Virus record (IMG/VR): IMGVR_UViG_3300017917_003379
DNA from: a virus
Length of the DNA: 64,000 nt
Strand: one strand, 5' to 3'
The translations under genes were made by a program, and so were the position numbers. Below, in pieces: positions 2,134 to 47,370 of the stretch (positions are counted from its first letter, which is position 1; each line of letters starts with the position of its first letter). Under the pieces are notes generated by a model, which was given only the letters and a program-made list of their open reading frames with translations, searched no databases and was not told the origin of the DNA.

Positions 2134-3891
2134 ATGGATATTCTCAATAAACAGTGGTGGAAACAAGTACTTCAACTAAACGAAATAGTAGATAATGATG
2201 TTGAAGATAAAATAATAAAAGGATTTTCATTATATAGATTTCCATCAGGGTTTGGTAGAGCTTACAAAACATCAAATGGTAAAGCATCTCCTTTTCTAGC
2301 TAAACAGATAAATAAATGGATTGAAAAAACATTCCCTGAAAGTAAAGTTAGAGTAGCGTATGAAAAAACGTATGCTACTATTAATATATTCAATCCTAAT
2401 GTTATTCATGAGATGTCTTCTATTCAAGAATCACCTCCTATTAATTTTGGAGATGACTCCCCATATCAAAATTATATTCTACAAAATCGCCATAAAATAG
2501 AACAAGCTGCTTATGCTTTTAATATTCCTATTAGTGATATGGAATATGCATTTAGTGGTGGTAATGAAGTAGTATTAAATGATGAAATGTGGAAAGAAAT
2601 GGAAAATACTAAGTCTTATAATATGAAGACATTAGAAGATGCTATTTCACACGCTTTAAAAATAGGTATTGATCCTAAACCCTATATTGATTATATTAAA
2701 CAGAAAAAAGATATACCCCTTCCTCTTGTATTACAATATTCTCAAGGGAAATATTATTTAGTTGGTGGTGAAATAGTATTATCTATTTATAGATCTTTAG
2801 GCATAATTCCTACTGTACTTTTAGCTACATTAAATTTACAAGATAAAACTTTATCTAAACCTATATTTGAAAATCAAAACAATACCGCAGAATTTAAAAA
2901 TAAACAGATAGATACTATTAAACATTTTTTAAAATATGCTGTTAAAGAATTAGATATAAAACAATTACCTAAAGGTTTAACATTATCGTATGATAATGAA
3001 AAAGCTAAAACTCACCATACATTTGGTACTTTTGATCCTAATTCTGATAAAATATGGTTATACGTTAAAAATAGAAATTTAGCTGATATTCTTCGTACAT
3101 TGGCTCATGAATTAGTTCATCGTAAACAAGCCGAAGAAGGTAGAATAGACATAAATAGTGGAGAAACTGGTAGTGAAATTGAAAATGAAGCCAATGCAAA
3201 AGCAGGAGTATTATTAAGAAATTTTGGTAAAAAACACGAAGAAATTTACGAAGCTAAAAATAGATTTGGAAATTATCTTTTCGGAGATAAAAAATCAGGT
3301 GTTAAAATAGGATGGTATAAAGATGAAATGGAAAAAGATACACCTGCTGAAAAAAAATTATTTGATTTAATAAAAAAATATGCTGATTCTGAACATAGTG
3401 TTTATTCAAAAATAAAATTAGACGATTTAGTCCCTTTATTTAAAATAATCAGAACACAATATCCTGAAATAGGAAAACCCAATCCTGACGAATATATCTA
3501 TAGAGGTACATCTATACCTAAAGAAAAATTAGATGAATTAATAAATAATGCTAAAAACATAGAACCTTATTCTCAAGGTATTATATTATTAAATCAAATG
3601 TATTCTTCAAGACGTCAAGTCCAATCCTGGAGTACAAAATATTACAATGCTGCTAGTTTCGCTGCGGGCACTGCAGAACGTAAAAAAGAAGCCGCTATAA
3701 TTATGAGAGCCAAATCAAGTGATGCTGATTTATATTTTAATCCGGATTTTATGAATAAATTAAGTTCACAAATTGAATATGAAACTTTTAATATTGTAAA
3801 TCCAATTCCTGTAGATATCATGGTGTTAGAAGAATATAAAGATGAATTTGAAGATATGGAAGCAGGGTACTTACATAATAAAGAACAATAA
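2134..3891 (+). CDS. Multidomain protein: ParB-like region, HExxH metallopeptidase, C-terminal ADP-ribosyltransferase-like domain
   Basis: PLPLVLQ..GKYYLVGGE; LRTLAHELVH...ENEANA; YIYRG...QSWST...IEYE (R-S-E pattern). Confidence 0.6.
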   Translation: MDILNKQWWKQVLQLNEIVDNDVEDKIIKGFSLYRFPSGFGRAYKTSNGKASPFLAKQINKWIEKTFPESKVRVAYEKTYATINIFNPNVIHEMSSIQESPPINFGDDSPYQNYILQNRHKIEQAAYAFNIPISDMEYAFSGGNEVVLNDEMWKEMENTKSYNMKTLEDAISHALKIGIDPKPYIDYIKQKKDIPLPLVLQYSQGKYYLVGGEIVLSIYRSLGIIPTVLLATLNLQDKTLSKPIFENQNNTAEFKNKQIDTIKHFLKYAVKELDIKQLPKGLTLSYDNEKAKTHHTFGTFDPNSDKIWLYVKNRNLADILRTLAHELVHRKQAEEGRIDINSGETGSEIENEANAKAGVLLRNFGKKHEEIYEAKNRFGNYLFGDKKSGVKIGWYKDEMEKDTPAEKKLFDLIKKYADSEHSVYSKIKLDDLVPLFKIIRTQYPEIGKPNPDEYIYRGTSIPKEKLDELINNAKNIEPYSQGIILLNQMYSSRRQVQSWSTKYYNAASFAAGTAERKKEAAIIMRAKSSDADLYFNPDFMNKLSSQIEYETFNIVNPIPVDIMVLEEYKDEFEDMEAGYLHNKEQ

Positions 3892-3909
3892 ATAAAATAA
3901 ATTAGGTTT

Positions 3910-4494
3910 ATGAGTGATAATATGTTAAAGTGCGAATTTCGCGGAAAAGATGTACAACGTATGCGTAATATCATTACTAAAGATTACAACGCAAAAACAA
4001 GTACACAAATAGGGTATACTAAAGAATATATTGAACATAAAGAAGGAGATATATGGGAAGAAAATAATAAAACATGGACTATTAAGAATGGTATTAAAAT
4101 GACCATTACTAAGTTAGATATAGTTAGAAAAGCATTAAATATGCCACTTACTTGTCCTACTTGTCATCAACCCATGAATAAAGGTAGATTAGATAAAGTA
4201 ATGTATTCTATCCATAAACAATGTTCTGATTGTGTTATTAAACATGAAACAGAATTAAAACGTCAAGGTAAATTTGAAGAATATCAACAAAATATCAATA
4301 AACAAAGTATATCATACCATATTAAAGAAATGGAAAATATATTGTTAGAATTGGCTTTAAATCAATCTAATGATTCCTTTGTGACTGAAGATGGTGATGT
4401 TGAATCGTGGAAAGGTAAAGGAATTGATTATAAAAAAATAACAGAAGACATCCAAGAATATATTCAAAAATTAAAAGATGTTTTGAATTCATAA
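3910..4494 (+). CDS. Hypothetical protein with two CxxC motifs
   Basis: CPTC and CSDC; 194-aa ORF. Confidence 0.7.
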   Translation: MSDNMLKCEFRGKDVQRMRNIITKDYNAKTSTQIGYTKEYIEHKEGDIWEENNKTWTIKNGIKMTITKLDIVRKALNMPLTCPTCHQPMNKGRLDKVMYSIHKQCSDCVIKHETELKRQGKFEEYQQNINKQSISYHIKEMENILLELALNQSNDSFVTEDGDVESWKGKGIDYKKITEDIQEYIQKLKDVLNS

Positions 4495-4545
4495 TATTTA
4501 TGGGCAATACCTATTTAAACCAATAAAAATAGTTTAGAATTGATT

Positions 4546-5166
4546 ATGCCCACAGAATTAACCGTTGCTATAGTATCATCTGTATTTACTGCTATTATAG
4601 GTCCTATTGCAGTACATTATTTTAAAGAAAAATTAAACAAAAAATCTAAAGATATATTAAAAGAAACCTTAGAAGAAAATACATTAATAATTAATAAATT
4701 AGAAGAAATTAAAAATATCCATAAAGCAGACAGAGTTTGGATAATGCAATTTCATAACGGAGGTAATTTTTACCCAACTGGAAAATCAATCCAGAAATTT
4801 AGCATGTGTTACGAATTAGTAGAATATGGAGTTAGTTCTATTCAACAAAATTTTCAAAATATACCTATTAGCTTATTTAGCAAATCTATAAATCATCTTT
4901 TAGAAGAAGACATAATTGCTATCCCTGATTTTAAGGATGAAACTATACCTACTTATGGGTTAAAATATGTTGCTGAAGAATATGGTTGTAAAAGTGCCTA
5001 TTTAGTTGCTATTAAATCTATAGATGGTAAGTATGTAGGAACATTAGGTATAGAATATACTAAACGTAAAACATCTCTTTCTCAAGAAGAAATAAATAAC
5101 CTATGGATTGAATCAACAGCAATAGGTGGGGTATTGATTTCTTCATTCAAAAACAAAACAATATGA
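4546..5166 (+). CDS. Putative holin, T4 gpT-like (single N-terminal TM + GAF-like domain)
   Basis: Hydrophobic LTVAIVSSVFTAIIGPIAV, then ADRVWIMQFHNG...SAYLVAIKS.DGKYVGTLGIEY GAF-type pattern; ATG 4546 preferred. Confidence 0.55.
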   Translation: MPTELTVAIVSSVFTAIIGPIAVHYFKEKLNKKSKDILKETLEENTLIINKLEEIKNIHKADRVWIMQFHNGGNFYPTGKSIQKFSMCYELVEYGVSSIQQNFQNIPISLFSKSINHLLEEDIIAIPDFKDETIPTYGLKYVAEEYGCKSAYLVAIKSIDGKYVGTLGIEYTKRKTSLSQEEINNLWIESTAIGGVLISSFKNKTI

Positions 5167-5411
5167 TTAAGCTAATAGATATGCTAAAAGAACATGAAGA
5201 AGGAGAAGAATATCCTCCTTACATGTATTCATCAGTAGGATTTGGTTGTCATGTATGTGATTATTATTATACAAAAGATGATAAACATATGTGTCGAAAT
5301 GAACATTATCAAGAATTAATGGGTACTGATGAATTAATTAACCCCAAGACTAAAAAACCAATTAAAGATCCATCAAAATATTGTTCAAACTGGTTTGAAC
5401 CTAAAAAATAA
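5163..5411 (+). CDS. Small Cys-rich protein with class A tag (MIKLIDMLKE)
   Basis: CHVC, C, YCSNW; tag. Confidence 0.7.
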   Translation: MIKLIDMLKEHEEGEEYPPYMYSSVGFGCHVCDYYYTKDDKHMCRNEHYQELMGTDELINPKTKKPIKDPSKYCSNWFEPKK

Positions 5412-5415
5412 TAAT

Positions 5416-6695: not shown

Positions 6696-6699
6696 AATC

Positions 6700-7173
6700 A
6701 TGATTAAACTTTTAGATATATTAAAAGAAATTATTGCATTTTCTAATTGGAAAATGCCTTCTTTATCTCAACTTAAACAAGAATATAAAATAGAGCATGA
6801 GATGAAAGGTAATGATTTTTGGGAAAGTGAAGAAGATTTTTTAAATGCTGTTAAGAATGGTAAAATAGTTACCATTACTCCTTCTGAAGATCAAAACATA
6901 TATTATAGAAGTGGAACAGAATCTTATGAAGAACTTTTAAATTTAATTAAATCATATAGATCTTACCCTAAATATAGAAATGAAACTACATTACAATCTT
7001 TATATGATGGATTTAAAAACAATTCACCTATGGATTTACCCATAGTTATAAAATTCCCAGATAATACTAAACGAGTATTTTCAGGTAACACAAGAATGGA
7101 TGTGGCTTTTCAATTAGGTATTAATCCAAAAGTATTATTAGTTAAAAGCGAATCTTATGACCCATCCATATAA
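6700..7173 (+). CDS. ParB/Srx-like protein with class A tag (MIKLLDILKE)
   Basis: PIVIK...VFSGNTRM motif; ATG 6700 follows ATATTTAT at 6686. Confidence 0.6.
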   Translation: MIKLLDILKEIIAFSNWKMPSLSQLKQEYKIEHEMKGNDFWESEEDFLNAVKNGKIVTITPSEDQNIYYRSGTESYEELLNLIKSYRSYPKYRNETTLQSLYDGFKNNSPMDLPIVIKFPDNTKRVFSGNTRMDVAFQLGINPKVLLVKSESYDPSI

Positions 7174-7420
7174 AGACATAGAAACTACATCTGAATATAT
7201 TATACGTGAATTTGATGAAAATATAGATCCTATAGAATTATTATGGCATCGTGATGATGAAAATCGCACAATAGAAATCATAGGAAAAACAGATTGGCAA
7301 CTGCAGCTTGAAGATCAGTTGCCAACTTCATTGAATCGTCCTATATTTATACCACGTCATATGTGGCATCGTGCTATAAAGGGTACTGGCAAATTGTACT
7401 TAAAAATATATAAATCATGA
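7157..7420 (+). CDS. Small cupin-fold protein
   Basis: WHRD...E and IFIPRHMWHR His motifs. Confidence 0.6.
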   Translation: MTHPYKDIETTSEYIIREFDENIDPIELLWHRDDENRTIEIIGKTDWQLQLEDQLPTSLNRPIFIPRHMWHRAIKGTGKLYLKIYKS

Positions 7421-7815
7421 TAAAACTAACAAATATATTATTTGAAATGTTAGACGAGAAAAAAGCAGATCGTTGTAAACGTATTGCTGATCGTCGCTAT
7501 TCAAAACCATCTGCTTATAAATCAGGTGCTATTGTGCGTTGCCGTCAAGGTAAAATATGGAAAAATATTAAAGAAAACGAATTAAATGAATTGGGCCCTA
7601 ATGATATTCATTATCAAAACATACTAAACTATTACGATAAATCTAATGATAATGTTAAAAAGAAAATATTAGAAAAATTTAATATTAAAATTATAAAAAA
7701 TAAAAGCATATCAGAATATGCTGAAGAATATAAAAAGAAATTAGAAAAAGAATTGTCTGAAATAGGACGAGATGTTTTAGAAATAGAACAAGAATTAGGT
7801 ATATCATTAAATTAA
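7417..7815 (+). CDS. Hypothetical protein, class A tag
   Basis: MIKLTNILFEMLDE; RC..PSAYKSGAIVRCR. Confidence 0.7.
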   Translation: MIKLTNILFEMLDEKKADRCKRIADRRYSKPSAYKSGAIVRCRQGKIWKNIKENELNELGPNDIHYQNILNYYDKSNDNVKKKILEKFNIKIIKNKSISEYAEEYKKKLEKELSEIGRDVLEIEQELGISLN

Positions 7816-7829: not shown

Positions 7830-8075
7830 ATGAAAAAATCCGAATTAAAAAGAATCATCAAAGAAACCATATCAGACCTTACTCAAAATAATCTAAATGA
7901 ACAAAATGAAGGTGTTAGACAATATCTAAGACAACTTCAAGATTTTGAAGAAACATATGTTGATACTTTAGATGATTTAGAAAATTTAGCTACTGCTGTT
8001 GAATCTTTCCATAGAAGTTTAATTAATAGAATTAAACAAGAAAAAGGAAACGTATACGGAGACTGGGAAGCATAA
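7830..8075 (+). CDS. Hypothetical protein, class B tag
   Basis: MKKSELKRIIKE...NLNE. Confidence 0.7.
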   Translation: MKKSELKRIIKETISDLTQNNLNEQNEGVRQYLRQLQDFEETYVDTLDDLENLATAVESFHRSLINRIKQEKGNVYGDWEA

Positions 8076-8368
8076 TGATCAAGTTAACAGACATATTACT
8101 TGAAATAATAAACGAAACAAGATACGAATCAAGTACTCTGAATGAAAAAAAAGAAACTCTTCGTACTTGGTTTAAACGTAAAGGTGCTCCTGGAAAAGTA
8201 GGTGGATGGGTAGATTGCAACACCTGCCGTAAGGTAGATGGTAAAACTAAATGTAAACCATGTGGTAGACAAAAAGGTGAAAAACGTTCTAAGTATCCTT
8301 CTTGCCGTCCCACTCCATCTCAATGTAAACAACCCGGTAAAGGTAAAAAATGGGGTAAAACAAAATAG
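8075..8368 (+). CDS. Basic Cys-rich protein, class A tag
   Basis: MIKLTDILLEIINE; LRTWF..WVDC..CGR..YPSCRP. Confidence 0.7.
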   Translation: MIKLTDILLEIINETRYESSTLNEKKETLRTWFKRKGAPGKVGGWVDCNTCRKVDGKTKCKPCGRQKGEKRSKYPSCRPTPSQCKQPGKGKKWGKTK

Positions 8369-8410: not shown

Positions 8411-8995
8411 ATGAATAATTCTGCATTACGCTTATTTATAAGAAGTATTATAACTGAAGCTAAAGAAAAAAAGGTTGAAAAAGAACCTAAAAAAACTATA
8501 AAAAAAGAAGAAAAAGCTCCAAAAAGTAGTGGTAAATTAGTAGACCTTAAAAAAGAATTAGCTGCTTTAAAACAATATAAAGATGAGCTTCAAGTAGCTA
8601 AATTTGCAGAAAAAACTGCATCTACTGAGGTTGAATTTGCTGATTTAGCTAAATTTGCTAAAGAATTAGATGCGTTAAAAGCAAAAGGTGTTGCTTTAGA
8701 AAAACAAATTGATGAGAAAATTAAAGAACTTGAAACTCGCATTTCTGATGAAAAAAATAAAATCAAAGAAATGATGGGTCTTACCGCTCCTGAGAAAAAA
8801 GGAGCTAAAAAAATGATGGATGAAAAAAAAGACGAATTAGAAGAAGCTCGTTTTAAAAAAGGTACTGATGTAGGTAAACCTGGTAAAGGATTTGCTAAAA
8901 TAGCTAAATCAGCCGCTAAAAAATATGGTTCAAAAGAAGCTGGTCAAAAAGTAGCAGGTGCTGTATTAAAGAAAGTAGTAGCTAAAAACAAATAA
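8411..8995 (+). CDS. Lys/Glu-rich coiled-coil protein, class B-like tag
   Basis: ALRLFIRSIITE; ELEE then basic C-terminal GKPGKGFAKIAK..KYGSKEAG. Confidence 0.75.
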   Translation: MNNSALRLFIRSIITEAKEKKVEKEPKKTIKKEEKAPKSSGKLVDLKKELAALKQYKDELQVAKFAEKTASTEVEFADLAKFAKELDALKAKGVALEKQIDEKIKELETRISDEKNKIKEMMGLTAPEKKGAKKMMDEKKDELEEARFKKGTDVGKPGKGFAKIAKSAAKKYGSKEAGQKVAGAVLKKVVAKNK

Positions 8996-8996: not shown

Positions 8997-9374
8997 ATGG
9001 AAAACAATGCTTTAATGGGCCAATTTGTATCTACATTACTTGCTGCTCGTACACAAGCCCATATATTTCATCTTCAAACACCCTCGTTTGCTGCTCATAA
9101 AGCATTAAATGAATTTTATGATGCTATTGTGGATTTAACAGATAGTATTGTTGAATCTTACCAAGGTAAATATGGTATTATTACTGGATACGGCAATGTT
9201 TCTTTACAAGAATACCAAAGTTGTGAAGGTATTATTATGTACTTTAACACTTTATGTATGTTTGTAGAAAAAAGTAGACAAATGTTAGCTCAAGACTCAT
9301 ATATTCAAAATCAAATTGATGAAGTTGTTGCATTGATCAACTCTACAATTTATAAACTACGCTTTTTAAAATGA
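8997..9374 (+). CDS. Ferritin/Dps-like four-helix bundle protein
   Basis: QAHIFH...HKALNEFYD..D..VESYQG; IQNQIDE..YKL. Confidence 0.65.
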   Translation: MENNALMGQFVSTLLAARTQAHIFHLQTPSFAAHKALNEFYDAIVDLTDSIVESYQGKYGIITGYGNVSLQEYQSCEGIIMYFNTLCMFVEKSRQMLAQDSYIQNQIDEVVALINSTIYKLRFLK

Positions 9375-9709
9375 TAAAATTACTTGATATTCTAGAAAAC
9401 CTAGATCCAGTAGGTAAAGAAGATGCTGATATTAATAACGATGGTAAAGTAAATAAAACAGATAAATATTTAGCTAATCGTCGTAAAGCAATAGCTGCTA
9501 ATCTTAAAGAAGGAGATCATGAAGTAGCAATGGCCGTTTCTAGCCTAGAATCAATTGCCAAAGCAATTGTTGAATTAAGACAAAAACTTGGAAATGTTGA
9601 ACGTAACATTCCAGGTTGGATTCAAGATCATATAGCAAAAGCAGAAAACTATATTGAGCAAGCTGCTCAAGGTTTTCATGAATTAAAACATATAGATGAA
9701 AATAAATAA
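9371..9709 (+). CDS. Hypothetical protein, class A tag, EF-hand-like loop
   Basis: MIKLLDILE; DINNDGKVNKTD. Confidence 0.7.
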   Translation: MIKLLDILENLDPVGKEDADINNDGKVNKTDKYLANRRKAIAANLKEGDHEVAMAVSSLESIAKAIVELRQKLGNVERNIPGWIQDHIAKAENYIEQAAQGFHELKHIDENK

Positions 9710-9787: not shown

Positions 9788-10360
9788 ATGAGTAAAACAT
9801 TATTATTAGAAAAATATATTAAAGTTGCTGTTCGTAAAGCATTAAAAGAGCAAGAAGAACAACAACGTAAAGCAGAAAAAGCAATATATCTTGTATATCG
9901 TTTTCCTGGTTTGAAAAAAATAATGGAAGACTTAATGTCTCCTGCTTTTGGTCGTTATATTAATGATGTTGATATTGTTGCTCCTAAACCAACAACATTT
10001 AAAATTACCTTAATCAACAATCAAGATTTTACTGTTAAATACCTTGGTAAAGGTAAATTTAACATTAAAGTATCAGGCAAACAATACCATTCAGATAATT
10101 TAGGAGAAGCAGAACGTTGTTCTCAAGCTATAGCTGATTTATTAGAATTAAACTATTCAACAGCAGAAGGTAAAGAACAAACTAGCCCTACTCCAGGAGC
10201 AACTGAACCTGGTTCTACTTCTCCAACATCTTCAACAGAATTGGGTGCTGCTGAATTAGGTCCTGAATTAGCAGCAGCTGAAGAAACACCACCTCCTACA
10301 ACAGCAAGTACTCCTGAAGAAACACCCGCACCAGAAGAAGAAACACCAGCTGAAGCTTAA
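9788..10360 (+). CDS. Hypothetical protein with acidic Pro/Thr-rich tail
   Basis: YIKVAVRKALKE tag-like N-terminus; PEETPAPEEETPAEA tail. Confidence 0.75.
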   Translation: MSKTLLLEKYIKVAVRKALKEQEEQQRKAEKAIYLVYRFPGLKKIMEDLMSPAFGRYINDVDIVAPKPTTFKITLINNQDFTVKYLGKGKFNIKVSGKQYHSDNLGEAERCSQAIADLLELNYSTAEGKEQTSPTPGATEPGSTSPTSSTELGAAELGPELAAAEETPPPTTASTPEETPAPEEETPAEA

Positions 10361-11426: not shown

Positions 11427-11813
11427 ATGGAATTTATTACTGAAGTAAAACGTTTACAAAAACTAGCAGGAATATTAACTGAACAAGAAAAACAACCAGA
11501 AGAAGAAATTTCTTCTGCTGATACTCCTGAAACTCCATCTGGTTCTATTACTAAGGCTGAAGCAAAACAGCTTATAAAAGGAACAAAAGGTAAATTCTTT
11601 ACTGTTACTTTCATTAAAAAAGACGGCACTACTCGTGTTATGAATGCCCGTTTAGGTGTAAAAGCATACCTTAAAGGAGGAGAACTTCCTTATGATCCTG
11701 AAGCAAAAGGATTAATACCTGTATTTGATATTCCTAAACGTGAATACAGAATGGTGAATTTAAATACTATTATTAAGTTAAAGATTGGTAATAACGAATA
11801 CGATGTAAAATGA
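11427..11813 (+). CDS. SH3/WYL-like small domain protein with class C tag
   Basis: ITEVKRLQKLAGILTE; FFTVTFIKKDGTTRVMNARLG; ATG 11427. Confidence 0.6.
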   Translation: MEFITEVKRLQKLAGILTEQEKQPEEEISSADTPETPSGSITKAEAKQLIKGTKGKFFTVTFIKKDGTTRVMNARLGVKAYLKGGELPYDPEAKGLIPVFDIPKREYRMVNLNTIIKLKIGNNEYDVK

Positions 11814-11864
11814 TTAAACTAATCCACATAAATACGATGTAAAATGATTAAACTAACCCACATA
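11797..11864 (+). repeat. 34-bp tandem duplication at gene junction
   Basis: aatacgatgtaaaatgattaaactaa(t/c)ccacata at 11797-11830 and 11831-11864, 33/34 identical. Confidence 0.95.
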
Positions 11865-13883
11865 TTAGAAAATATACTATTTGAATATAGTCAAGCTCAA
11901 ATTGACAAAACTATTAAAAGATGGGAAAATGAACCTAACTTTGATAAAAATGTCGCTTTAAATTTAATAAAAACATTTGATAATAAAAAAAGTGGATTAT
12001 CAAGTAAATTAGATTTAGTAGTATTACCTGATAAACTAAAACAAGGGAATAATTATCTTAATATAGATCTATATTCATATGAAGATATGAAACGATTAAT
12101 AAATTCTATCCCTGAAAATCCTGAAACTGTTAAAAAAACAGCTATTAATAGATTTGTAGAGTTATTTGGAATAAATAAACAAACTGCTCAATCATATGTT
12201 GCTCGTTTTTTATATAATAAAGATAAATTAAAATTAGCAGCAAAAGAAGGACTAGAAGATATAGGAGTAACTAAAGAAGAAGTATTAAATTTAATCCCTA
12301 AAAAACTTCAACGAAATGAAGCATTTTTAGATCCACGTAACTGGAATTGGATTTCATTTGAACAAATAACAGATGCTCTATTCCCTAGTCAAAAAACTTC
12401 AGAAGATAATATTAACTTAGCTACTGCAGAAGGTGATAAAGTGTATGATAAAGATGGAATAGAAATATATAAAGGAGATGATATTCAAAAATGTATATCT
12501 TATAATCCTGTTATAGAAAAAACAAAAAAGAAAAAATACGGGTGGTGTGTAACTCAAGTAGGAAATACTAATTATGATTTTTATAGATTTAAAAATCAAG
12601 CCCCTACTTTTTATTTTGTATTTGATAGAAACAAACCTTCTAGCCCCGAACATGCTCTTTTTGATGATGAATGGCATGCTTTTGTAATACAAGTAACTGC
12701 TGATAAGAAAACATATATAGTAACAGGAGCTAATAATAGAAGAGATATTGATACTGGAGATAAAGGATGGGAAGGTATAGCAAACATAGTACCTCCTGAT
12801 ACATGGAATAAAATTAAAAATTTAAAAGATTATTTTGTACCTGTACCCTTATCTGCTGTAGAAAGAGCAAGAAAATATGCTTCTGGGATGGATTTATCTT
12901 TAGATGAATTTAAAGAACTTTCTCAAGATGAAAAGATATTATATATACAAGGAAAAGCTTCTAAAAATCAAATATCTACTGATATTTTAAAAATCTTACC
13001 AAAATATAAAATATCATATCAGGGTAAAACTACAACATTAGCTAATATTGCTATAGATAGTGGACAAGAAATTCCTTATTCTGTATTGAAAGATAACGAA
13101 GCTTTAGCTAAAAGATATGCTATATTTAGATTTAGACATACTAATTATGGTAATTTACCTATTCCCCTTCCTTTTGTAAAATATTTAGACGAACCTGCTA
13201 AAGAAAAATATTTAAAAACATTCGATAATAATCTTACATTTGAATATATAGAGAAATATTTTGGAGAAAAATCAGCTCAAAAATATGTAAATGAACAAAT
13301 CAAAACTCTTAACTATCTCCCCCCAGGTGCTATAAAATATATTACAGATCCTAAAATAAAAGATTTATATTTATCTTATAGTAAATTATTCAAAAATTGG
13401 CAAAATTCGGCTAATACTAATATTGATGAAGAAAGATTAGAAAATTCAAAACAAATGCCTATACAGGAAATCGATCCTGTTCCTATAATGTATGATGATT
13501 GGAAAGAATTTTCTAATAAAGAAAAACAAATTATATATAATTTAGCAAAAACTGCAGATAACAATACGGAAGAATATTTAACAGTTAGTTATGCTGTACC
13601 CTTCTTTTTACAAGATGGTGAACAAAAATACGCTCTACTCCCAGAAGATGATACTTATGAAAATTGGGTAATAACCGATATGAATGGAAATATAATATCC
13701 GAATTTAAATCAATCGAATCTATATCATTAAAAAATAAACCTGTATATGGTGGTTACCCAGATTATAGTAATATAGAAAATGCTAAAAGGATATATAAAT
13801 TGTCTGATTTGCAGATAAATGGTAAACCTGTTTCTTTAAAAGAAATAAAACGTATATTAAAATTAGCAGGAATATTACGTTAA
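11844..13883 (+). CDS. Large hypothetical protein, class A tag at N-terminus and class C tag at C-terminus
   Basis: MIKLTHILENILFE ... SLKEIKRILKLAGILR. Confidence 0.8.
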   Translation: MIKLTHILENILFEYSQAQIDKTIKRWENEPNFDKNVALNLIKTFDNKKSGLSSKLDLVVLPDKLKQGNNYLNIDLYSYEDMKRLINSIPENPETVKKTAINRFVELFGINKQTAQSYVARFLYNKDKLKLAAKEGLEDIGVTKEEVLNLIPKKLQRNEAFLDPRNWNWISFEQITDALFPSQKTSEDNINLATAEGDKVYDKDGIEIYKGDDIQKCISYNPVIEKTKKKKYGWCVTQVGNTNYDFYRFKNQAPTFYFVFDRNKPSSPEHALFDDEWHAFVIQVTADKKTYIVTGANNRRDIDTGDKGWEGIANIVPPDTWNKIKNLKDYFVPVPLSAVERARKYASGMDLSLDEFKELSQDEKILYIQGKASKNQISTDILKILPKYKISYQGKTTTLANIAIDSGQEIPYSVLKDNEALAKRYAIFRFRHTNYGNLPIPLPFVKYLDEPAKEKYLKTFDNNLTFEYIEKYFGEKSAQKYVNEQIKTLNYLPPGAIKYITDPKIKDLYLSYSKLFKNWQNSANTNIDEERLENSKQMPIQEIDPVPIMYDDWKEFSNKEKQIIYNLAKTADNNTEEYLTVSYAVPFFLQDGEQKYALLPEDDTYENWVITDMNGNIISEFKSIESISLKNKPVYGGYPDYSNIENAKRIYKLSDLQINGKPVSLKEIKRILKLAGILR

Positions 13884-35712: not shown

Positions 35713-36831
35713 ATGAAAAGCATTAAACAACAGTATATAGATTTAAAAGAAGGTAAAATGTCACAAGCAAACTTTATGCGTAATTTACGCATGACTTTAC
35801 CTCAATATGTAACTAACGTAACTTCATATAATGATGCTGTTAAAATTCTTCGCAACAAAGGTATTTTAAATGAAAGTCTTATTAAGCAACTAGAACAAGG
35901 TATTGAAGTAGAAAAAGAACACACTAGTGATGAAATTAAAGCTGCTGAAATTGCTTTAGATCATTTAAAAGAAAAACCTGACTATTATACTAAATTAAAA
36001 AAAGCCGGTTTAGAAGAAAATAAAAATTGGACTAACGCTAGCGGAAAAGAATTATATAGTCAATTTAAAGAAATTGATAACCTAAATAGCCAAGAAGTAT
36101 TAATTGGTATTGATTTTGAAATTGAACAAAATCATGAGTTATCTAAAGAAGAAGCTGTTAAGATTGTTATTAAAAATTTAAAGAAAAACCCATACTATTA
36201 TACTACTAGTTTAATGGCTGGTAAAAAATTTGAAGAAATACCCACTATTGGAAAATTAACACCTGGTTCTGATAAAATGAAAGAATTTAAAGGTGAAAAC
36301 GATGCTATTGATAAGGACAACATGATGAAACCTGTTAAAGGTATTGATAAACCTAAAAAAGACTCTGATAAAGGTGGTGAAAAAAATAAAATGGTTAAAA
36401 ATGTTTCTTCTATGTCTTTAGTTGCTAAAACATCTCGTGGTGTGCAAAAAATGGCTGCTACTGGTGAAAAAATGAAAACTATCAGAGAAGCAGAAGAAAA
36501 GAAAAATACAGATACATCTTCTAATACAAAAAGTGTACCTAGTACTATTTTTAGCAAAAATGCTAAGTTAAGTGCTAGTATTAGTAAATTAATGGATAAA
36601 GATCCAAATGCTGTTAGTAAACAAAATAGACTTAAAGATATCATTCGTGAATTAATTAAGCAAGAAATGTATGATGGAATGGAACCAATGAGCCGTAAAG
36701 AATTAGATGAAACTGATATATATGGTATTGCTGGTAATCCTGAAAAAGAAAAAGAAGCACGTCTTGCCTCTATAAAAAAATCTAAACCCTCTACAACAAC
36801 AACTAAAAGTACAAAAAAGCCTAAAAAATGA
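35713..36831 (+). CDS. Protein with DUF5661-like repeats (putative prohead core)
   Basis: GIEVEKEHT..EIALDHLKE.PDYYTKL plus a degenerate second copy; LKDIIRELIKQE. Confidence 0.6.
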   Translation: MKSIKQQYIDLKEGKMSQANFMRNLRMTLPQYVTNVTSYNDAVKILRNKGILNESLIKQLEQGIEVEKEHTSDEIKAAEIALDHLKEKPDYYTKLKKAGLEENKNWTNASGKELYSQFKEIDNLNSQEVLIGIDFEIEQNHELSKEEAVKIVIKNLKKNPYYYTTSLMAGKKFEEIPTIGKLTPGSDKMKEFKGENDAIDKDNMMKPVKGIDKPKKDSDKGGEKNKMVKNVSSMSLVAKTSRGVQKMAATGEKMKTIREAEEKKNTDTSSNTKSVPSTIFSKNAKLSASISKLMDKDPNAVSKQNRLKDIIRELIKQEMYDGMEPMSRKELDETDIYGIAGNPEKEKEARLASIKKSKPSTTTTKSTKKPKK

Positions 36832-37442
36832 AACAGCTTTTAATAGAACATATTCCCTTTAGTATAGCTAAACTTACTCTTACTGAAAGTAAGGGTGGTA
36901 GAATGGTATTAGAAGGTAAACTGCAAGAAGCCGAACAAAAAAATGGTAACGGCCGTGTTTATCCTAGAGAAGTATTACAACGCGAAGTAGAAAAATATAT
37001 TAAAGGGCCTATATCCCAAAACAATGCCCTAGGTGAACTAGACCATCCAGAATCATCTGTAATTAATTTATCTAACGTTTCTCATAATATTAAAAAAGTA
37101 TGGTGGGATGATAATAATTTAATGGGTCGTTTAGAATTACTTAACACACCTTCTGGTAAAATTGCTATGGAATTAGTAAGCGCTGGTATTCCTTTAGGAA
37201 TATCATCTCGCGGTATGGGTAGCGTTAAGCAGCTAGGTGAAACAGTTGAAGTACAAGATGACTTTGAATTATTATGTTGGGATCTGGTATCTATACCCAG
37301 CACACCAAATGCTTACATGCAACCTGTTGGTTCATTAAAAGAAGGCAAACAATTTAATACTATTACTAAAGACTATAGCAGAGTAAATTCACTTATTACA
37401 GAAATTATTTGCAGTCAAACTGGTATTTGTCCTTTATGTTAA
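36828..37442 (+). CDS. Prohead protease (T4 gp21-like)
   Basis: NGNGRVYP; ALGELDHP; GISSRGMGS; WDLVS.PS. Confidence 0.95.
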   Translation: MKQLLIEHIPFSIAKLTLTESKGGRMVLEGKLQEAEQKNGNGRVYPREVLQREVEKYIKGPISQNNALGELDHPESSVINLSNVSHNIKKVWWDDNNLMGRLELLNTPSGKIAMELVSAGIPLGISSRGMGSVKQLGETVEVQDDFELLCWDLVSIPSTPNAYMQPVGSLKEGKQFNTITKDYSRVNSLITEIICSQTGICPLC

Positions 37443-38255: not shown

Positions 38256-38672
38256 ATGGCCCAATTAATTAACGAAGCAAAAAGAATGCAATTTTTAGCT
38301 GGAATTATTACTGAATCTCAAATAAATGAATTAAATGAACCTGAAAAGGAACTAGTTGATGTTATTTTAGGTGAAGGTATTAATGAAGGAAAATTTAATC
38401 CTAAAGAAATATTAGCTAAATTAATAGCTGTAGCTAAAAAAGGTTTACTTACTGCTACTATTTTATCTACTGTTTTAGCATCTTGTAATTTTGGTCCATC
38501 TGTTGATGAAACTATTAAGAATAGAGTAGAACAACATAAAATTATAAATAGTATGGAATTAGACCAATGGAAAAGAGATGAAACTTTTAAAAATAAAATG
38601 GATAGCCTTAAACAAGATTTAAAAGCAATTGAATATCAATCTGGACTTTCTAATCCTAAAAATCCTTTCTAA
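38256..38672 (+). CDS. Class C-tagged protein with internal lipobox-like segment
   Basis: LINEAKRMQFLAGIITE; KKGLLTATILSTVLAS-C. Confidence 0.7.
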   Translation: MAQLINEAKRMQFLAGIITESQINELNEPEKELVDVILGEGINEGKFNPKEILAKLIAVAKKGLLTATILSTVLASCNFGPSVDETIKNRVEQHKIINSMELDQWKRDETFKNKMDSLKQDLKAIEYQSGLSNPKNPF

Positions 38673-38674: not shown

Positions 38675-39268
38675 ATGTTAATAAAAGAAGCAAAACGATT
38701 ACAACAATTAGCTGGTATCATTACTGAAGCTGAGCAAGTTGATAGTGCTGAACAAGCCGCTGAAAAAGGATTAATAGATTTTTTAGGAGACATTAAATCA
38801 GCAGCATCAACTATCAAACCATCTCCTAAAGATGGAAAAATACAAGAAGGACTTTTAACATTATTTGCCATCACTGCTGGTGCTCCAGGTTTATTAAATT
38901 TACTAGGTAAAGGAGCTGATTTAATAGGTCAATATTTTTCACAAGGTAATGTAACTTCTACTAAAGTAGGAGCAGCTTTACAAAAAGCAGGACATAGCTT
39001 AGAACATAAGTATATTGAAGCAATTGCCTTTCTATTAAAAAAAGCATATCCTAAAGATTATGGAAATCAAGATCCATTTGATAAATCATCTCCATTACAC
39101 GATACAGCTCATGGAATTTATGCTGCTATACTAGCAGCGGCCGCTGTGGGATCAGGAATAGAAGCAACTAATGCTGTTAATTTAATTGTAAAAGGATTAG
39201 AAGGAGGAGCAGCAGCTTTTAAAACAGCTGAAGTTGTACAATTAGTACAAAAAATAACAACCGTTTAA
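38675..39268 (+). CDS. Class C-tagged protein with hydrophobic helices
   Basis: LIKEAKRLQQLAGIITE; IQE/GLLTLFAITAG; GIYAAILAAAAVG. Confidence 0.7.
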   Translation: MLIKEAKRLQQLAGIITEAEQVDSAEQAAEKGLIDFLGDIKSAASTIKPSPKDGKIQEGLLTLFAITAGAPGLLNLLGKGADLIGQYFSQGNVTSTKVGAALQKAGHSLEHKYIEAIAFLLKKAYPKDYGNQDPFDKSSPLHDTAHGIYAAILAAAAVGSGIEATNAVNLIVKGLEGGAAAFKTAEVVQLVQKITTV

Positions 39269-39425: not shown

Positions 39426-40505
39426 ATGAGTAACAAAAACTTATTCAAAGAGGCTATCGCCGACGCCAAAGCCGTTCGCGAAGCAGCGTTAGCAAACGCA
39501 AAAGCCGCTCTTGAAGAAGCTTTAACTCCCAAACTTCAGTCTATGTTAGCTGCAAAGCTTAATGAAATGGCTGATGAAGAAGAGCTTGAAGAAGCAAGAG
39601 ACGACGAAAATGAAATGGAAGAAGGAATGCATCCTGACATTACCGGAGACACTATTCAAGACAAATACCGTGCAACTGGTGCTGCTCTTGAAGAAATGGG
39701 GATGGATATGGAAATAGATGAAGAAGACTTCGACTTATCTGAAATTTTAGCTGAACTTGAAGATGAAGAAGAAATTGAAGAAGATTTTGATTTATCTGAA
39801 ATCTTAGCTGAATTGAAAGAAGAAAAAGAAGAAGAGGAAGAGGAAGAAGAGGAAGAAGAAGAGAAAGAAGAGGAAGATGAAGAATTAGAGATCAAAGACA
39901 TGAGTGTTGAAGATCTTAAAGATCTTATCCGCGACATCGTATCCCAAGAAATGGAAGAAGAAGCTCCTGCTGGTGAAATGGAAGCTGAACCTTCTATGGA
40001 AATGGGTGGTGAAGAAATGACTAGCGATGATGAAGATGAGATTGATTTAGAAGAACTTTTAGCTGAATTAGATTCTTTAGACGGAACATCCGAGCTTGAA
40101 GAAGCTAAGAAGAAAAAAGCTAAGCAAGATGAAAAAGCTAAAAAAGAAAAAGAAAAAGAACTTGCTGAGGCTATTAGAACTATTAACACCCTTCGTAAAG
40201 AATTAAACGAAGTTAACTTATTAAATGCTAAGTTAATTTATGTTAACAAAATCTTTAAAGCTAAGAATTTAACTGAATCACAAAAAGTAAAAGTAATTTC
40301 TTCGTTTGACCAAGCAACAACTGTAAAAGAAGCTAAAGTTGTATTTGAATCCTTAAATATGGCTTTAACAACAGCTCCTGCCAAAAAGCAAATTAAAGAA
40401 TCTTTAGGATTTGCTTCTAAAGCTGCTGGTGTAGCTCCTAAAAAAGTAATTGTTGAGTCTAATGACGTAATTGCTCGTATGCAAAAACTTGCAAACATTA
40501 AATAA
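39426..40505 (+). CDS. Prohead scaffold/core protein (gp22-like role)
   Basis: Very acidic coiled coil directly upstream of MCP; many LxE sites; ends VIARMQKLANIK. Confidence 0.85.
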   Translation: MSNKNLFKEAIADAKAVREAALANAKAALEEALTPKLQSMLAAKLNEMADEEELEEARDDENEMEEGMHPDITGDTIQDKYRATGAALEEMGMDMEIDEEDFDLSEILAELEDEEEIEEDFDLSEILAELKEEKEEEEEEEEEEEEKEEEDEELEIKDMSVEDLKDLIRDIVSQEMEEEAPAGEMEAEPSMEMGGEEMTSDDEDEIDLEELLAELDSLDGTSELEEAKKKKAKQDEKAKKEKEKELAEAIRTINTLRKELNEVNLLNAKLIYVNKIFKAKNLTESQKVKVISSFDQATTVKEAKVVFESLNMALTTAPAKKQIKESLGFASKAAGVAPKKVIVESNDVIARMQKLANIK

Positions 40506-40542: not shown

Positions 40543-42183
40543 ATGAACATCCAACAATTATTAGAGTCGTCTAACCAATATAAGGTTATTGCTGACGACG
40601 CAAGAAAACTTAACTCCAAGTGGGTTAAATCTGGCCTTTTAGAAGGTTTAAAGAATGAGAACGATCGCAACACTATGGCGATGTTACTCGAAAACCAAGC
40701 TAAGCAATTAGTAACTGAAGCTTCTCAAACTGGTACTGCTACCATCGGTGGTGGTGGATATGGTCAGGAAGCTTGGAATGGTGTAGCTTTACCATTAGTA
40801 CGTCGTGTATTTGGTGAAATCGCCGCTAAAGAATTCGTTAGTGTACAGCCTATGAATTTACCTTCTGGTCTTGTATTCTATTTAGATTTCAAATACGGTA
40901 GCAACTTCCCCGATCCTTTCACCCAGAATGGTTCTTTATATGGTGCTAACGCTACTACTAACGTAACTGACATTGCTTCTCAGTCGCTTTATGGTGCTGG
41001 TCGCTTTGGTTACACTATCAACCAATTCTCTGCTTCTATTACCAATGCTGGTACTAGTTCAGCTACATGGGCTGATTTCAACTTTGATTCTGACTATTCA
41101 GCTTCTGCTGCTGCTGGTTCTTGGAAGAAAATCTTAGTTCCCCTTCCTTCTACTGCTGATCAGCTTGGCGTTCGTGCTTTCACTATCGCTTCTGGTTCTA
41201 TCGGTGTAAGTGATGTATTACAAGCTTTCACTACTGTAACTAACAGTACTGCTTCGTTTATTGTTACTGGTTCGCTTGTAGCTGCTAATATGAGTCCTAC
41301 TGCTGCTACTGTAACATTATATTTCAATGTTGCTCCTCTTTCTACTGCTCGTGGTGATTTTGAAGATGCTAGCGGTGCTGGTTATCCTTCATACAACAGC
41401 ACAGCTGCTGGTGCAGGTAGTGCAATTGCTATTCCTGAAATCAATGTTCAGTTAAAATCTGAGCCTATTGTTGCTAAAACTCGTAAGTTAAAAGCACAGT
41501 GGACTCCAGAATTCGCTCAGGATCTTAACGCTTACCATAGTGTAGATGCTGAAGCTGAATTAACTGGTATTCTATCTCAGTACATCTCTATGGAAATCGA
41601 CCTCGAAATTCTAGATATGTTAATCCAAAATGCTTTCACTAAAGATTACTGGAGTGCTGTCAACAACGTAACTATCGACTCTAACGGTGTTACTAATCCT
41701 GCTGCTTTAGCTTCTGGTTATTACAACACTCAGGGTGGTTGGTTCCAAACTTTAGGTACTAAACTTCAGAAAGTATCTAACAAAATTCATCAGTTAACTC
41801 TTCGTGGTGGCGCTAACTTCCTCGTAACTTCTCCCACTGTAGCTACTATCCTTGAATCTATTCCTGGATTTGCTGCTGATGGTGATGGTGAAAAGATGGA
41901 ATTCAACTTCGGTATTCAGAAGGTTGGTTCTCTCAATAGCCGTTACAAGGTTTATAAGAACCCATACATGACTGAAAACGTAATCTTAATGGGTTACAAA
42001 GGTGCTCAGTTCCTTGAGTGTGGTGCTGTATTTGCTCCATATGTGCCTTTAATCATGACTCCTCTTCTTTACGATCCTAATACCTTCACTCCACGTAAAG
42101 GTTTGATGACTCGTTACGCTAAGAAGATGATTAGACCGGACTATTATGGGAAGATTTATGTTAGTGGTTTAAATACTCTCTAA
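40543..42183 (+). CDS. Major capsid protein (T4 gp23-like)
   Basis: LLENQ; LPLVRR; VQPM..PSGLVF; AKTRKLKAQWT.E.AQDL.A.H; FAPYVPL; TPRKGLMTRY. Confidence 0.97.
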   Translation: MNIQQLLESSNQYKVIADDARKLNSKWVKSGLLEGLKNENDRNTMAMLLENQAKQLVTEASQTGTATIGGGGYGQEAWNGVALPLVRRVFGEIAAKEFVSVQPMNLPSGLVFYLDFKYGSNFPDPFTQNGSLYGANATTNVTDIASQSLYGAGRFGYTINQFSASITNAGTSSATWADFNFDSDYSASAAAGSWKKILVPLPSTADQLGVRAFTIASGSIGVSDVLQAFTTVTNSTASFIVTGSLVAANMSPTAATVTLYFNVAPLSTARGDFEDASGAGYPSYNSTAAGAGSAIAIPEINVQLKSEPIVAKTRKLKAQWTPEFAQDLNAYHSVDAEAELTGILSQYISMEIDLEILDMLIQNAFTKDYWSAVNNVTIDSNGVTNPAALASGYYNTQGGWFQTLGTKLQKVSNKIHQLTLRGGANFLVTSPTVATILESIPGFAADGDGEKMEFNFGIQKVGSLNSRYKVYKNPYMTENVILMGYKGAQFLECGAVFAPYVPLIMTPLLYDPNTFTPRKGLMTRYAKKMIRPDYYGKIYVSGLNTL

Positions 42184-42257: not shown

Positions 42258-42341
42258 TTTAAAGGCGGTTCGTTTCATTATACTAATACACAACCTCTTA
42301 CTGTAAATGAAAATAGAGTAAAATCTGATAAAATAACATGA
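42258..42341 (+). pseudogene. HNH endonuclease C-terminal relic
   Basis: FKGGSFHYTNTQPLTVNENRVKSDKIT*; no in-frame ATG back to TAA 42213; TGA overlaps next ATG. Confidence 0.7.
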
Positions 42342-42811
42342 AATTAATAGAAATTATACAACAATTAATTCAAGAAAATAAAGATTTTCCTTGGATAGAA
42401 CAACGTGAATATGAATTATTAGCTGAATTTAATTATAATTTAGAAGATACATATCCAATAACAAATGAATTACCATTTAATATTGAATTTAAAGATGAAC
42501 AAAATGGATTAAATATTACTAAAGGTAAATTAAATAATGATTTTATTGAGATAAAATTATATTGGGTAGATAATCAAGGTAAAGTAAGAATGGATACACC
42601 TGAAGGTATTTTACCCAAAACAATGAATACTCATTTGAATAATATTTTAAATAAATTTTTACCTAATTATAATAAATTTTTAATAAGACCTAATGATGAT
42701 GTAAGATATAGATTATTCCAATTATTACTAAACAAATATATTAATAAAAATCAATGGAATATGGAATTTAATCCTGAAAATAAATCAATATTTTTAGTTA
42801 AGTATACTTAG
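42338..42811 (+). CDS. Hypothetical protein, class A-like tag
   Basis: MKLIEIIQQLIQE...LLAE. Confidence 0.7.
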   Translation: MKLIEIIQQLIQENKDFPWIEQREYELLAEFNYNLEDTYPITNELPFNIEFKDEQNGLNITKGKLNNDFIEIKLYWVDNQGKVRMDTPEGILPKTMNTHLNNILNKFLPNYNKFLIRPNDDVRYRLFQLLLNKYINKNQWNMEFNPENKSIFLVKYT

Positions 42812-43722: not shown

Positions 43723-43744
43723 TATTTATATTAAATGATACAGT

Positions 43745-44413: not shown

Positions 44414-44444
44414 GTATATTTATACGTGTTAAATACTAGGTATA

Positions 44445-46085: not shown

Positions 46086-46086
46086 T

Positions 46087-46677
46087 ATGGCGTGGCCTAG
46101 AACTGGATTAGTATATCTTAATAACACTAGTGTTCCCACACCTGGTGTTTGTTTATCAACAGCAGCAACAGGCTCTTGTGGTGGAGGACCTGGTGGTGGA
46201 GGTGGAACTGGTGGTGGAGGTGGAGGAGGATTAGATCCTATTTTGGTAGGTCAAATACTTAACACTAACCAAAACGTTATATATTACAAAATAAATCTAG
46301 AACAAACAGTAACAAATATGTATGGTGAGTCACTAGAAAAGTGGTACTATACTGGAGTAGATGTACGTTGTAATATAAATAGAGGAGCAACTTCTAATCC
46401 AGATGATGAGTTTGGTATAGGTATAGCTCAAAATATAACAGTAGACATACCTAGAGCTCTTATCCAAACATATAATTTTCTACCAGAAGTAGGAGATATA
46501 TTAATGGACAGAGAAAGATATTATGAAGTAAATGCTGTGGATTCACAATTTGTAACTATACCAGGAACGGGAGCGTCAAATAGTGTACAAGGAACAACAG
46601 GACAAATTGTAATGTTTTCCTTATCATGTTATTTAACAAGAATAACAAAACTTAATATTATACCATATTATCAATGA
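46087..46677 (+). CDS. Head-closure/neck protein (gp14-like)
   Basis: NMYGES; PEVGDIL..YYEV; N-terminal poly-Gly. Confidence 0.55.
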   Translation: MAWPRTGLVYLNNTSVPTPGVCLSTAATGSCGGGPGGGGGTGGGGGGGLDPILVGQILNTNQNVIYYKINLEQTVTNMYGESLEKWYYTGVDVRCNINRGATSNPDDEFGIGIAQNITVDIPRALIQTYNFLPEVGDILMDRERYYEVNAVDSQFVTIPGTGASNSVQGTTGQIVMFSLSCYLTRITKLNIIPYYQ

Positions 46678-47012
46678 TGAAAATAGCAAATATATTACTT
46701 GAAGGAGCTACTTTATATAAAGTAGATATCTTGATTAAAACCAAGAAAGAAGCTAATAAAGTAGAAATATATAATCAAATTAGAGCATTAACAAATGTTG
46801 TAGTTGTTACTGTTGAGCAAAATGATTTCTTAATTAGTAAATCAACTGATCAGTTTGATTATGAATTATTACATATAAAATTCTTATCAACTAAAGAACC
46901 TAAAGAAACTATAGATGAAATTAAAAAAGATGCCATGATTACTAGACGTATTCCTGGTTTGCTTCAATTCATAGTAAGGTATAAAACAATTCAATCAAAA
47001 GGTAAATATTAA
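46674..47012 (+). CDS. Hypothetical protein, class A-like tag
   Basis: MKIANILLE; IRALTNVVVV. Confidence 0.65.
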   Translation: MMKIANILLEGATLYKVDILIKTKKEANKVEIYNQIRALTNVVVVTVEQNDFLISKSTDQFDYELLHIKFLSTKEPKETIDEIKKDAMITRRIPGLLQFIVRYKTIQSKGKY

Positions 47013-47016
47013 TATA

Positions 47017-47370
47017 ATGATAAAACTATTAAACATACTAAGCGAATTAGAAAAACCCCAACAAATATATAGTCCAGGATATGGACCTGGAAATGAACCT
47101 GATCAATTAATTTCAAAAGGATTCACAACTACTCCTCCAGAAATAGATCCAGAAACTGGAAGATCAACTTCTTTCGTAAAATATTTACCTGCATTCAAAC
47201 AAATGCGTATTGATCTTGTAAAAAAAAGAAATGAAGTAAAACCATTTAAATTTTCTTCTAACCCTGATATAGCTAATACAGCTAAAGAAGTAGATAAAAT
47301 AATGGGTAAACTATCTCAATTAATATTTGTTTTAGATAAAATGGTTGAATTACAGCAAAAAAATAGATAA
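47017..47370 (+). CDS. Hypothetical protein, class A tag
   Basis: MIKLLNILSE. Confidence 0.7.
   Translation: MIKLLNILSELEKPQQIYSPGYGPGNEPDQLISKGFTTTPPEIDPETGRSTSFVKYLPAFKQMRIDLVKKRNEVKPFKFSSNPDIANTAKEVDKIMGKLSQLIFVLDKMVELQQKNR

Follow-up and report, generated by a model that had tools for sequence, protein, structure and literature searches.

Why should ∼30 genes of one phage, encoding proteins that are otherwise unrelated, begin with one of only three short peptides? The question is raised by a 64,000-nucleotide (nt) stretch of viral DNA, hereafter the window, that comprises bases 31,999-95,998 of the IMG/VR record IMGVR_UViG_3300017917_003379 (155,189 base pairs). The real genes of the window all lie on the plus strand and its G+C content is ∼29%. 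The source is a T4-like phage of aquatic Flavobacteria, the nearest cultured relatives of which are the Flavobacterium phages vB_FspM_immuto (immuto; 75% DNA identity in the gene of the major capsid protein, MCP). A preliminary description had listed 27 tagged genes and proposed that the tags are short, cleavable N-terminal addresses that work with a gp21-type protease. Comparison of this genome (G000) with four related complete genomes (G001, G003, G004 and G005), together with scans of IMG/VR, sustains the core of that idea, as one tag matches the C-terminus of the scaffold, a Glu site marks its N-terminal but rarely its C-terminal copies, and an S77 protease co-occurs with the tags. The leaders are thus probably capsid-targeting sequences (CTSs), constituting an enlarged, multi-channel version of the T4 internal protein/Alt system.

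The three tags are characterized by the consensus sequences MIKLxDILxE (class A), MKKSELRQIIREE (class B) and INEIKRMQQLAGI(N/IT)E (class C). Each of the 27 coordinates given previously is an ATG that opens the peptide in question; the tag at 17899 begins at residue 5, and 6700, 19664 and 11427 are internal ATGs within slightly longer open reading frames (ORFs; genes are named by their start in the window, Table 1). Tight regular expressions match N-termini of plus-strand ORFs only, with no internal match and none in the other five frames. With profile hidden Markov models (HMMs) made from the tags of each class, members reach 10-15 (A), 16-22 (B) and 33-41 bits (C), whereas the maxima in a proteome shuffled 10 times are 4.1, 6.6 and 4.4 bits, respectively, so that the tags lie far above shuffled controls in all three classes. 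When all N-terminal 21-mers are clustered without supervision, the three tag classes emerge as the largest groups, outranking families of true paralogues, and 70 N-terminal 21-mer pairs score at least 30 as against 15 internal pairs. Codons vary synonymously inside the tags (ATT/ATA/ATC, CTA/TTA/CTT, GCA/GCT/GCG, AGA/CGT/CGA) and the DNA upstream is not conserved, which indicates selection on the peptide and not on the DNA. Robust tags are carried by 23 genes in the window (A 10, B 6, C 7) and weak matches by four (8411, 9788, 34369 and 42338), while three tagged genes lie outside it at window-frame coordinates -14024 (B), 74254 (A) and 85805 (A), giving a tagged share of ∼30 genes or 13% of the genome's genes. 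The (L/I)xE triplet said to end most tags is present within residues 4-24 in 30/30 tagged and 55/203 (27%) untagged genes, an enrichment that is partly circular because the classes were defined using (L/I)xE. The tags as such are confirmed, far beyond chance, and a full-text search of the searchable literature did not return the tag strings.

A clue to the role of the leaders is provided by class C. A scan of IMG/VR for its core RMQQLAGI gave at least 119 loci; among the matches listed, to which all class C counts from IMG/VR refer, 73 copies are N-terminal, 5-10 residues from the start of small proteins, and 40 stand at the extreme C-terminus of acidic gp22-like scaffolds, the N-termini of which (..LFKEAIADAKAVREAA..) match that of the window scaffold (39426). 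The window scaffold ends in ARMQKLANIK and that of immuto in ..SRWQKLAGIIK, and immuto gene 111675 starts with ..RRMQKLAGIITE (also written ..FRRMQKLAGIITE). The scaffolds of G001, G003, G004 and G005 share the C-terminal motif, that of G001 being below the profile cut-off and read directly. The scaffolds of T4 and Syn9 do not end in the motif, which is therefore clade-specific. The two placements differ in what follows. In 69 of the 73 N-terminal copies an (L/I)xE triplet comes at most nine residues further on (background 8.6%), whereas C-terminal copies are followed by the end of the protein after 1-5 residues, usually Lys and mostly without Glu. The Glu is thus not needed for the partner of the motif and is tied to N-terminal placement, and a Glu site that accompanies N-terminal but rarely C-terminal copies is what a release site predicts. 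Class C-like C-termini are also present on the tagged proteins 11844 and 27487.

A candidate for the releasing enzyme is encoded in the head module, which runs from terminase (29981) and portal (31586) through the S77 protease (36828) and an acidic scaffold-like protein (39426) to a gp23-type MCP (40543). The gp21 homologue noted at 36828 in the preliminary description is borne out by its Peptidase_S77 match (Table 1) and is 52% identical to the protease of immuto, 43-46% to those of T4-like cyanophages and 33% to those of the T4 type. Across IMG/VR, 19 of the 27 larger tag-bearing records contain an S77 protease, including 6/6 with a completeness of at least 90%. Proteases of the S77 family cleave behind Glu (PMC5694885), and the MCPs of the clade carry QLV(T/R/V)E↓(A/S) at the place of FLTE↓A in T4 gp23 (arrows mark cuts or candidate cuts), a Val-x-Glu site where T4 gp23 is cut that fits a conserved protease specificity. 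The scaffold, a 359-residue acidic protein encoded immediately before the MCP, is identified chiefly by its position, composition and conserved family; neither Pfam nor PHROGs gave a match, and of ten head-module proteins submitted to PHROGs the MCP alone was named. The scaffold contains an internal B-like segment, MSVEDLKDLIRDIVSQE, and its N-terminus groups with class B in the clustering. Class A was also likened to the FDLSEILAELE repeats of the scaffold, for which its profile gives no support.

Five tags of the window lead directly into E-I-(K/R)-(V/I)-x-x-P. This linker, E[IV][KR][VI]xxP, occurs 31 times in the five genomes compared with 1.3 times expected in shuffles (shuffled maximum 7), right after tags in G000 and mostly between the modules of long proteins in G004, where L/I/V-x precedes it. 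The same arrangement is seen in the family of the 679-residue protein 11844, which has 186 homologs (P0007, P0011, P0041, P0091 and P0102 among them; 47-69% identity, 670-1190 residues, contigs up to 183 kb). Among the 120 listed, about half have an A-type leader at the start, frequently MIKLTNILKE-VKIxxP, and a C-type hook closes about half (about 50/120). The long homologs are polyproteins, with additional modules delimited by the linker or by C tags within the chain, and P0020 contains an Imm5 (PF14423) module. The AlphaFold2 model of 11844 has a mean predicted local distance difference test score of 82.8, the helix at either end being of low confidence and not part of the fold; it gave no Foldseek match at E ≤ 0.001, a sequence search of the Protein Data Bank gave nothing below E 0.08, and the family has no Pfam relatives. 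Internal class C tags and repeated linkers inside single ORFs are also observed at protein positions L080:176 and L011:345 and in G004 at 127741, 142679 and 168424. Internal tags and linkers within one ORF suggest tandem cargo modules made as one chain.

On the strength of these sequences, we propose that a tagged protein would enter the assembling prohead through a leader that imitates a peptide holding the scaffolding core in the shell. Tag C copies the amphipathic helix and short hook at the C-terminus of the scaffold (..RMQKLAGIIK, then stop) and may bind the inner face or N-arm of the MCP, by analogy with the 80alpha scaffold and CpmB of SaPI1. Tag A follows the T4 CTS pattern M-x-x-hydrophobic-x-(D/E/N)-hydrophobic-hydrophobic-x-E, and tag B weakly resembles the scaffold N-terminus and an internal scaffold segment. 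Once the shell has closed, the S77 protease would cut after the (L/I)xE that ends the tag, often within (L/I)xE↓IKVxxP, and thereby release the body within the head, from which it would exit together with the DNA; the scaffold, 11844 and 27487 would be anchored by their C-terminal motif, which has no cut site. Binding, packaging, cleavage, ejection and an effector role are steps that we infer. In its fullest form the proposal becomes a multi-channel modular loading code, in which leaders of aquatic T4-like phages are modelled on separate parts of the scaffold (its C-terminal helix-and-hook, its start and a segment in its interior), unrelated proteins and polyproteins by the dozen dock at defined prohead sites, the linker provides release before injection, and cargo is gained by recombination behind a tag; this extension is tentative, and we hold it rather doubtful as a whole.

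The closest known counterpart is that of T4, in which internal proteins that otherwise differ enter the scaffolding core by virtue of the CTS, which gp21 removes (PMC3012670, PMC5694885). The leaders described here are likewise short (10-20 residues), N-terminal, terminated by (L/I)xE and placed on unrelated, fast-evolving proteins, and each of the two phages has an S77 prohead protease and an acidic scaffold, the present one putative. The CTS of T4 IPI-III and Alt was reportedly described by Mullaney and Black in 1996. As read from the T4 record, the leaders are MKTYQEFIAE↓A (ipII/ipIII), MKTFKEF..ITE↓A (ipI) and MELITELFDE (Alt), with which class A agrees in its 10 residues, hydrophobic positions 4, 7 and 8, acidic or amide position 6 and Glu at 10. 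The T4 CTS (ipII/ipIII MKTYQEFIAEA; L212:8118-8927, L213:3417-4416) and the gp22 N-terminus MLKEQLIAEAQ have IAEA in common. The present phage differs from T4 in having three tag classes instead of one and ∼30 tagged genes instead of about 4-6, in a tag that copies the C-terminal peptide of the scaffold and is found at C-termini too, and in a linker, (L/I)xE-IKVxxP, that is reused between polyprotein modules.

In the 80alpha scaffold, the last 16 residues form an amphipathic helix and a hook ending in RIIK that binds the N-arm of the capsid protein, and this helix-and-hook is copied by SaPI1 CpmB (PMC5644958). The present motif is similarly a terminal amphipathic helix of ∼11 residues with a short basic hook, copied by a second protein, and its endings ..LAGIIK and ..RAGIIK look like the same device by analogy. 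However, the phage lineage is another one, with no sequence homology shown, and the copies here are mostly N-terminal on cargo, are joined to a candidate protease site and occur on dozens of proteins rather than on one competing scaffold. T4 itself may obey a rule of this kind, with cargo tags modelled on an end of the scaffold, its CTS and the start of gp22 being alike. In the giant phages phiKZ, 201phi2-1 and SPN3US, many head-internal proteins are cut after Glu by an S77-family protease, and the conserved N-termini of paralogues have been suggested to act like a CTS (PMC5694885, PMC7411985); these propeptides mostly exceed 100 residues, occur in families of paralogues and have A/S/G-x-E as their cut site, whereas the leaders here have 10-20 residues and fall into three discrete classes on unrelated bodies. 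The cargo-loading peptides of encapsulins, an analogy only, are also short terminal peptides that bring diverse cargo to the interior of an HK97-fold shell, but they are usually C-terminal and uncleaved, and the compartment is not a virus. The long, multi-module relatives of 11844, one with Imm5, resemble the polyvalent proteins proposed to be delivered with DNA (PMC5512222), except that the modules here are split by a defined linker of prohead-protease type and that many modules are separate tagged genes.

The tags extend well beyond this genome. All three classes occur at or near N-termini in G001, G003, G004 and G005 (A 1-5, B 0-3, C 2-6; ∼6-10 in total), class B in G001 being a leader that begins at residue 16 only, and the present genome, with 26-30 tags, is the most expanded of the five. 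The exact class B string MKKSELRQIIRE is found at 43 IMG/VR loci, with the tag conserved over 14 residues and up to nine consecutive small tagged genes in class B arrays. Arrays of 7-9 consecutive small genes that start with MKKSELRQIIREEI and have unrelated bodies are seen in L148 and L138 (3300038361_000087, 3300024327_000068). The class A pattern gave at least 120 loci, and among the matches listed 150/150 open ORFs of at least 40 residues near an upstream stop codon. A tblastn search of 50,697 cultured phage records with tag C hit the immuto phages only, and that of cultured phages with tag B gave no match, the query being probably too short or filtered.

Several observations weigh against assigning the leaders to capsid targeting. 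None of the three class profiles scores T4 ipI, ipII, ipIII or Alt positively, so that homology of class A to the T4 leaders is not shown and their likeness is one of pattern. The profile of the scaffold family aligns with T4 gp22 at marginal significance (hhalign E 9e-4, probability 23%), and the class B profile scores scaffold segments at 2.6-9.2 bits, near the shuffled maximum of 6.6; neither tag A nor tag B is more than weakly similar to scaffold segments. The internal proteins of T4 are basic, whereas half of the bodies here are acidic (median isoelectric point 5.5), and net charge does not split tagged from untagged proteins (p = 0.20). Immuto, the sole cultured relative (host Flavobacterium sp. 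LMO8), has just 2-3 tags, on its genes 111675 (C), 113188 (B) and 123355 (B-like), and to our knowledge ∼30 species exceeds by far what any head is known to load via short tags. Nor is there more than a weak, marginal association of the tags with ATATTTAT, a motif that precedes virion genes. It is the most enriched upstream 8-mer, with 49/67 copies at most 60 nt upstream of a start (9-fold excess), and is promoter-like, given its position before terminase, portal, sheath, tube and baseplate genes. The tagged genes had been said generally to lie downstream of it, a link that proved weak when tested, as it precedes 11/30 tagged and 40/203 untagged genes (odds ratio 2.4, p = 0.056) and resembles the ordinary Bacteroidetes -7 box, TAnnTTTG. 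The motif ends 4-6 nt before the ATG of several genes (window 6686-6699; window-frame 74242, 85793 and -14036), and if it is a box of the -7/-10 type the mRNAs would be leaderless or nearly so.

The bodies behind the tags bear on what is being carried. They show no mutual BLAST similarity and are in this sense unrelated, as had been stated; of the folds named at the time, GNAT (17899) is supported by Pfam, whereas the ParB-like, winged helix-turn-helix and OmpA-like assignments have no Pfam confirmation, and Pfam above its cut-offs names 2/27 bodies (GNAT, and WYL_2 at 11427). Among the IMG/VR matches listed, clustering yields 51 groups from 61 class C bodies and 67 from 136 distinct class A bodies, some of the latter with P-loop motifs. 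In G004 one body follows a B tag in one case and a C tag in another (79-84% identity), and the bodies of 9371, 9788 and 11427 are found within larger untagged proteins of relatives (445-563 residues in G001/G004 for 9788). The body of 15970 is 58% identical to an untagged 77-residue paralogue (genome 11016), the two sharing a tract of 96/98 identical nt (genome 11112-11209 and 48145-48242, the latter window 16147-16244) with diverged flanks that suggest recent gene conversion. Homologs in the four relatives exist for 13/30 tagged bodies and 132/197 other genes (p = 0.015), and tagged bodies turn over faster than other genes. The description of the tagged proteins as interchangeable effectors is doubtful for 34369, 35205, 38256, 38675, 46674, 47017, 11844 and 27487, which are conserved, lie in or adjoin the head module, and may be core or structural proteins instead.

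It is unlikely, though conceivable, that this applies more widely, with the tags targeting the prohead but most tagged proteins being parts of the assembly core that serve as accessory scaffold or govern size, shape or stoichiometry and are degraded and expelled like T4 gp67, gp68 and gp22, instead of reaching the next host as cargo. The four genes 34369, 35205, 38256 and 38675 do occupy the place of gp67/gp68, flanked by the genes of portal, protease and scaffold, relatives keep several of the tagged genes, tags included, the C motif is on the scaffold itself, and many bodies are acidic like core proteins. Yet 20 tagged genes lie in a variable region far from the head module, with unrelated bodies for which sister genomes often have no homolog; some bodies are domains of enzyme or ligand-binding type (GNAT, WYL_2, and P-loop motifs in class A of IMG/VR), and a body may occur untagged as well.

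Quite improbable is a partner other than the capsid, the leaders then serving as a ClpXP-type degron, as a helix binding a chaperonin or other partner, or as an oligomerisation helix, with the scaffold end using the same partner. Degrons are typically terminal peptides at either end, and the phage encodes a GroEL/GroES pair and two ClpP (genome 120176-121807, 111309-111872 and 145143-145685, at the window's edge or beyond it), GroEL being present in all five related genomes. ClpP, however, is present in three and absent from G001 and G004, which carry all three tag classes, and a degron for phage ClpP is therefore unlikely. The contrast in Glu sites between N- and C-terminal copies has no obvious reason under a degron or chaperone, whereas the grammar of tag and linker fits the S77 specificity for cutting after Glu, and no chaperonin-targeting peptide of such a kind is known. 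It is very improbable that the shared starts are nucleotide-level cassettes (translation-initiation regions or recombination linkers) spread by duplication with no peptide function, for although the 96/98-nt tract records recent recombination between a tagged and an untagged paralogue, the tagged genes are grouped in a variable region, and 5′ coding sequence could matter for initiation in Bacteroidetes-type hosts without Shine-Dalgarno pairing, the residues are kept while codons vary freely, the tags are conserved across genomes of 28-37% G+C, the same motif occurs at C-termini and inside polyproteins, and upstream sequences are unconserved.

The features of the window are collected in Table 1. 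Two further ORFs lie among them. The first, of 585 residues at 2134-3891, has no A-C tag and no Pfam match, and its N-terminus (..QVLQLNEIVD) holds a linker-like LNE-IV. The second, of 42 residues at 35064-35192 between two B-type tagged genes of the head module, is extremely basic (K, R, G) and protamine-like.

Table 1. Tagged genes and head-module features in the window (aa, amino acids; ↓, candidate cut; HMM or Pfam, detected by these means)
Coordinates	Strand	Feature	Evidence or remark
5163..5411	+	Class A, MIKLIDMLKE↓, 82 aa, Cys-containing body	Tagged ortholog in G001
6700..7173	+	Class A, MIKLLDILKE↓, 157 aa	ATATTTAT 6 nt upstream
7417..7815	+	Class A, 132 aa	Same body family, tagged, in IMG/VR loci L223, L232, L237
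7830..8075	+	Class B, MKKSELKRIIKE↓, 81 aa	HMM
8075..8368	+	Class A, 97 aa, basic, 6 Cys	HMM
8411..8995	+	Weak class B-like leader MNNSALRLFIRSIITE↓, 194 aa	Below HMM threshold; leader kept in G005
9371..9709	+	Class A, 112 aa	Tagged ortholog in G003
9788..10360	+	Weak class B-like leader MSKTLLLEKYIKVAVRKALKE, 190 aa	Leader kept in G005
11427..11813	+	Class C, 128 aa, WYL_2 body	HMM, Pfam
11844..13883	+	Class A N-terminus and class C-like C-terminus (..KEIKRILKLAGILR, then stop), 679 aa, conserved	HMM
13949..14806	+	Class A, 285 aa	HMM
14854..15363	+	Class C, 169 aa, tag then linker INE-IKVSQP	HMM
15970..16281	+	Class C, 103 aa	Body 58% identical to untagged paralogue at genome 11016
16319..16630	+	Class C, 103 aa, linker INE-IKVSQP	HMM
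17899..18315	+	Class A tag from residue 5 (RIKLIDLLEE), GNAT acetyltransferase body	HMM, Pfam
19149..19640	+	Class B, 163 aa	HMM
19664..20620	+	Class B, 318 aa	HMM
21994..22344	+	Class C, 116 aa, linker INE-IKIPTP	HMM
26302..26775	+	Class B, 157 aa	HMM
27487..28485	+	Class B N-terminus and class C-like C-terminus (..LRKMQYYAGIKK, then stop), 332 aa	HMM; conserved in G003, G005
34369..35064	+	Weak B-like leader MGNLKEYIKSLVRKELEE, head-module gene	Conserved in G003, G005, immuto
35205..35669	+	Class B, 154 aa, head module, leader ending in linker LGE-IRISQP	HMM
35713..36831	+	DUF5661 head-module protein with internal B-like segment LKDIIRELIKQEM (not significant alone)	Pfam, HMM
36828..37442	+	Prohead protease, Peptidase_S77 (T4 gp21 family)	PF03420, E 2.9e-30
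38256..38672	+	Class C, 138 aa, head module	HMM
38675..39268	+	Class C, 197 aa, head module	HMM; tagged ortholog in G003
39426..40505	+	Acidic gp22-like scaffold, C-terminus ..VIARMQKLANIK, then stop (class C motif)	HMM, clustering
40543..42183	+	Major capsid protein, gp23 type, candidate maturation site QLVTE↓AS	T4 counterpart FLTE↓A
42338..42811	+	Doubtful class A-like leader MKLIEIIQQLIQE	HMM score 0.8; joins cluster A in 21-mer clustering
46674..47012	+	Class A-like, 112 aa	Leader conserved in G005, G003
47017..47370	+	Class A, 117 aa	HMM; leader conserved in G003, G005

A system of this kind is known from T4; what appears new is the presence of three tags, their number (∼30 genes), the correspondence of tag C to the scaffold C-terminal peptide, the use of a motif at both ends of proteins, a linker that polyproteins have as well, and a broad distribution among uncultured phages. 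Mimicry of the scaffold offers a simple and testable account of how capsid-targeting peptides originate. If the leaders are indeed capsid-targeting sequences, tags of 10-20 residues with a built-in release site would be ready parts for loading foreign proteins into heads, and would allow virion cargo to be annotated straight from metagenomes, where the three motifs already mark hundreds of IMG/VR genes of unknown function. About one in eight of the genes of this phage would then encode a protein shipped in the virion, and the payload of such phages would be much larger and faster-changing than T4 suggests, which bears on how host defences are beaten in the first seconds of infection.

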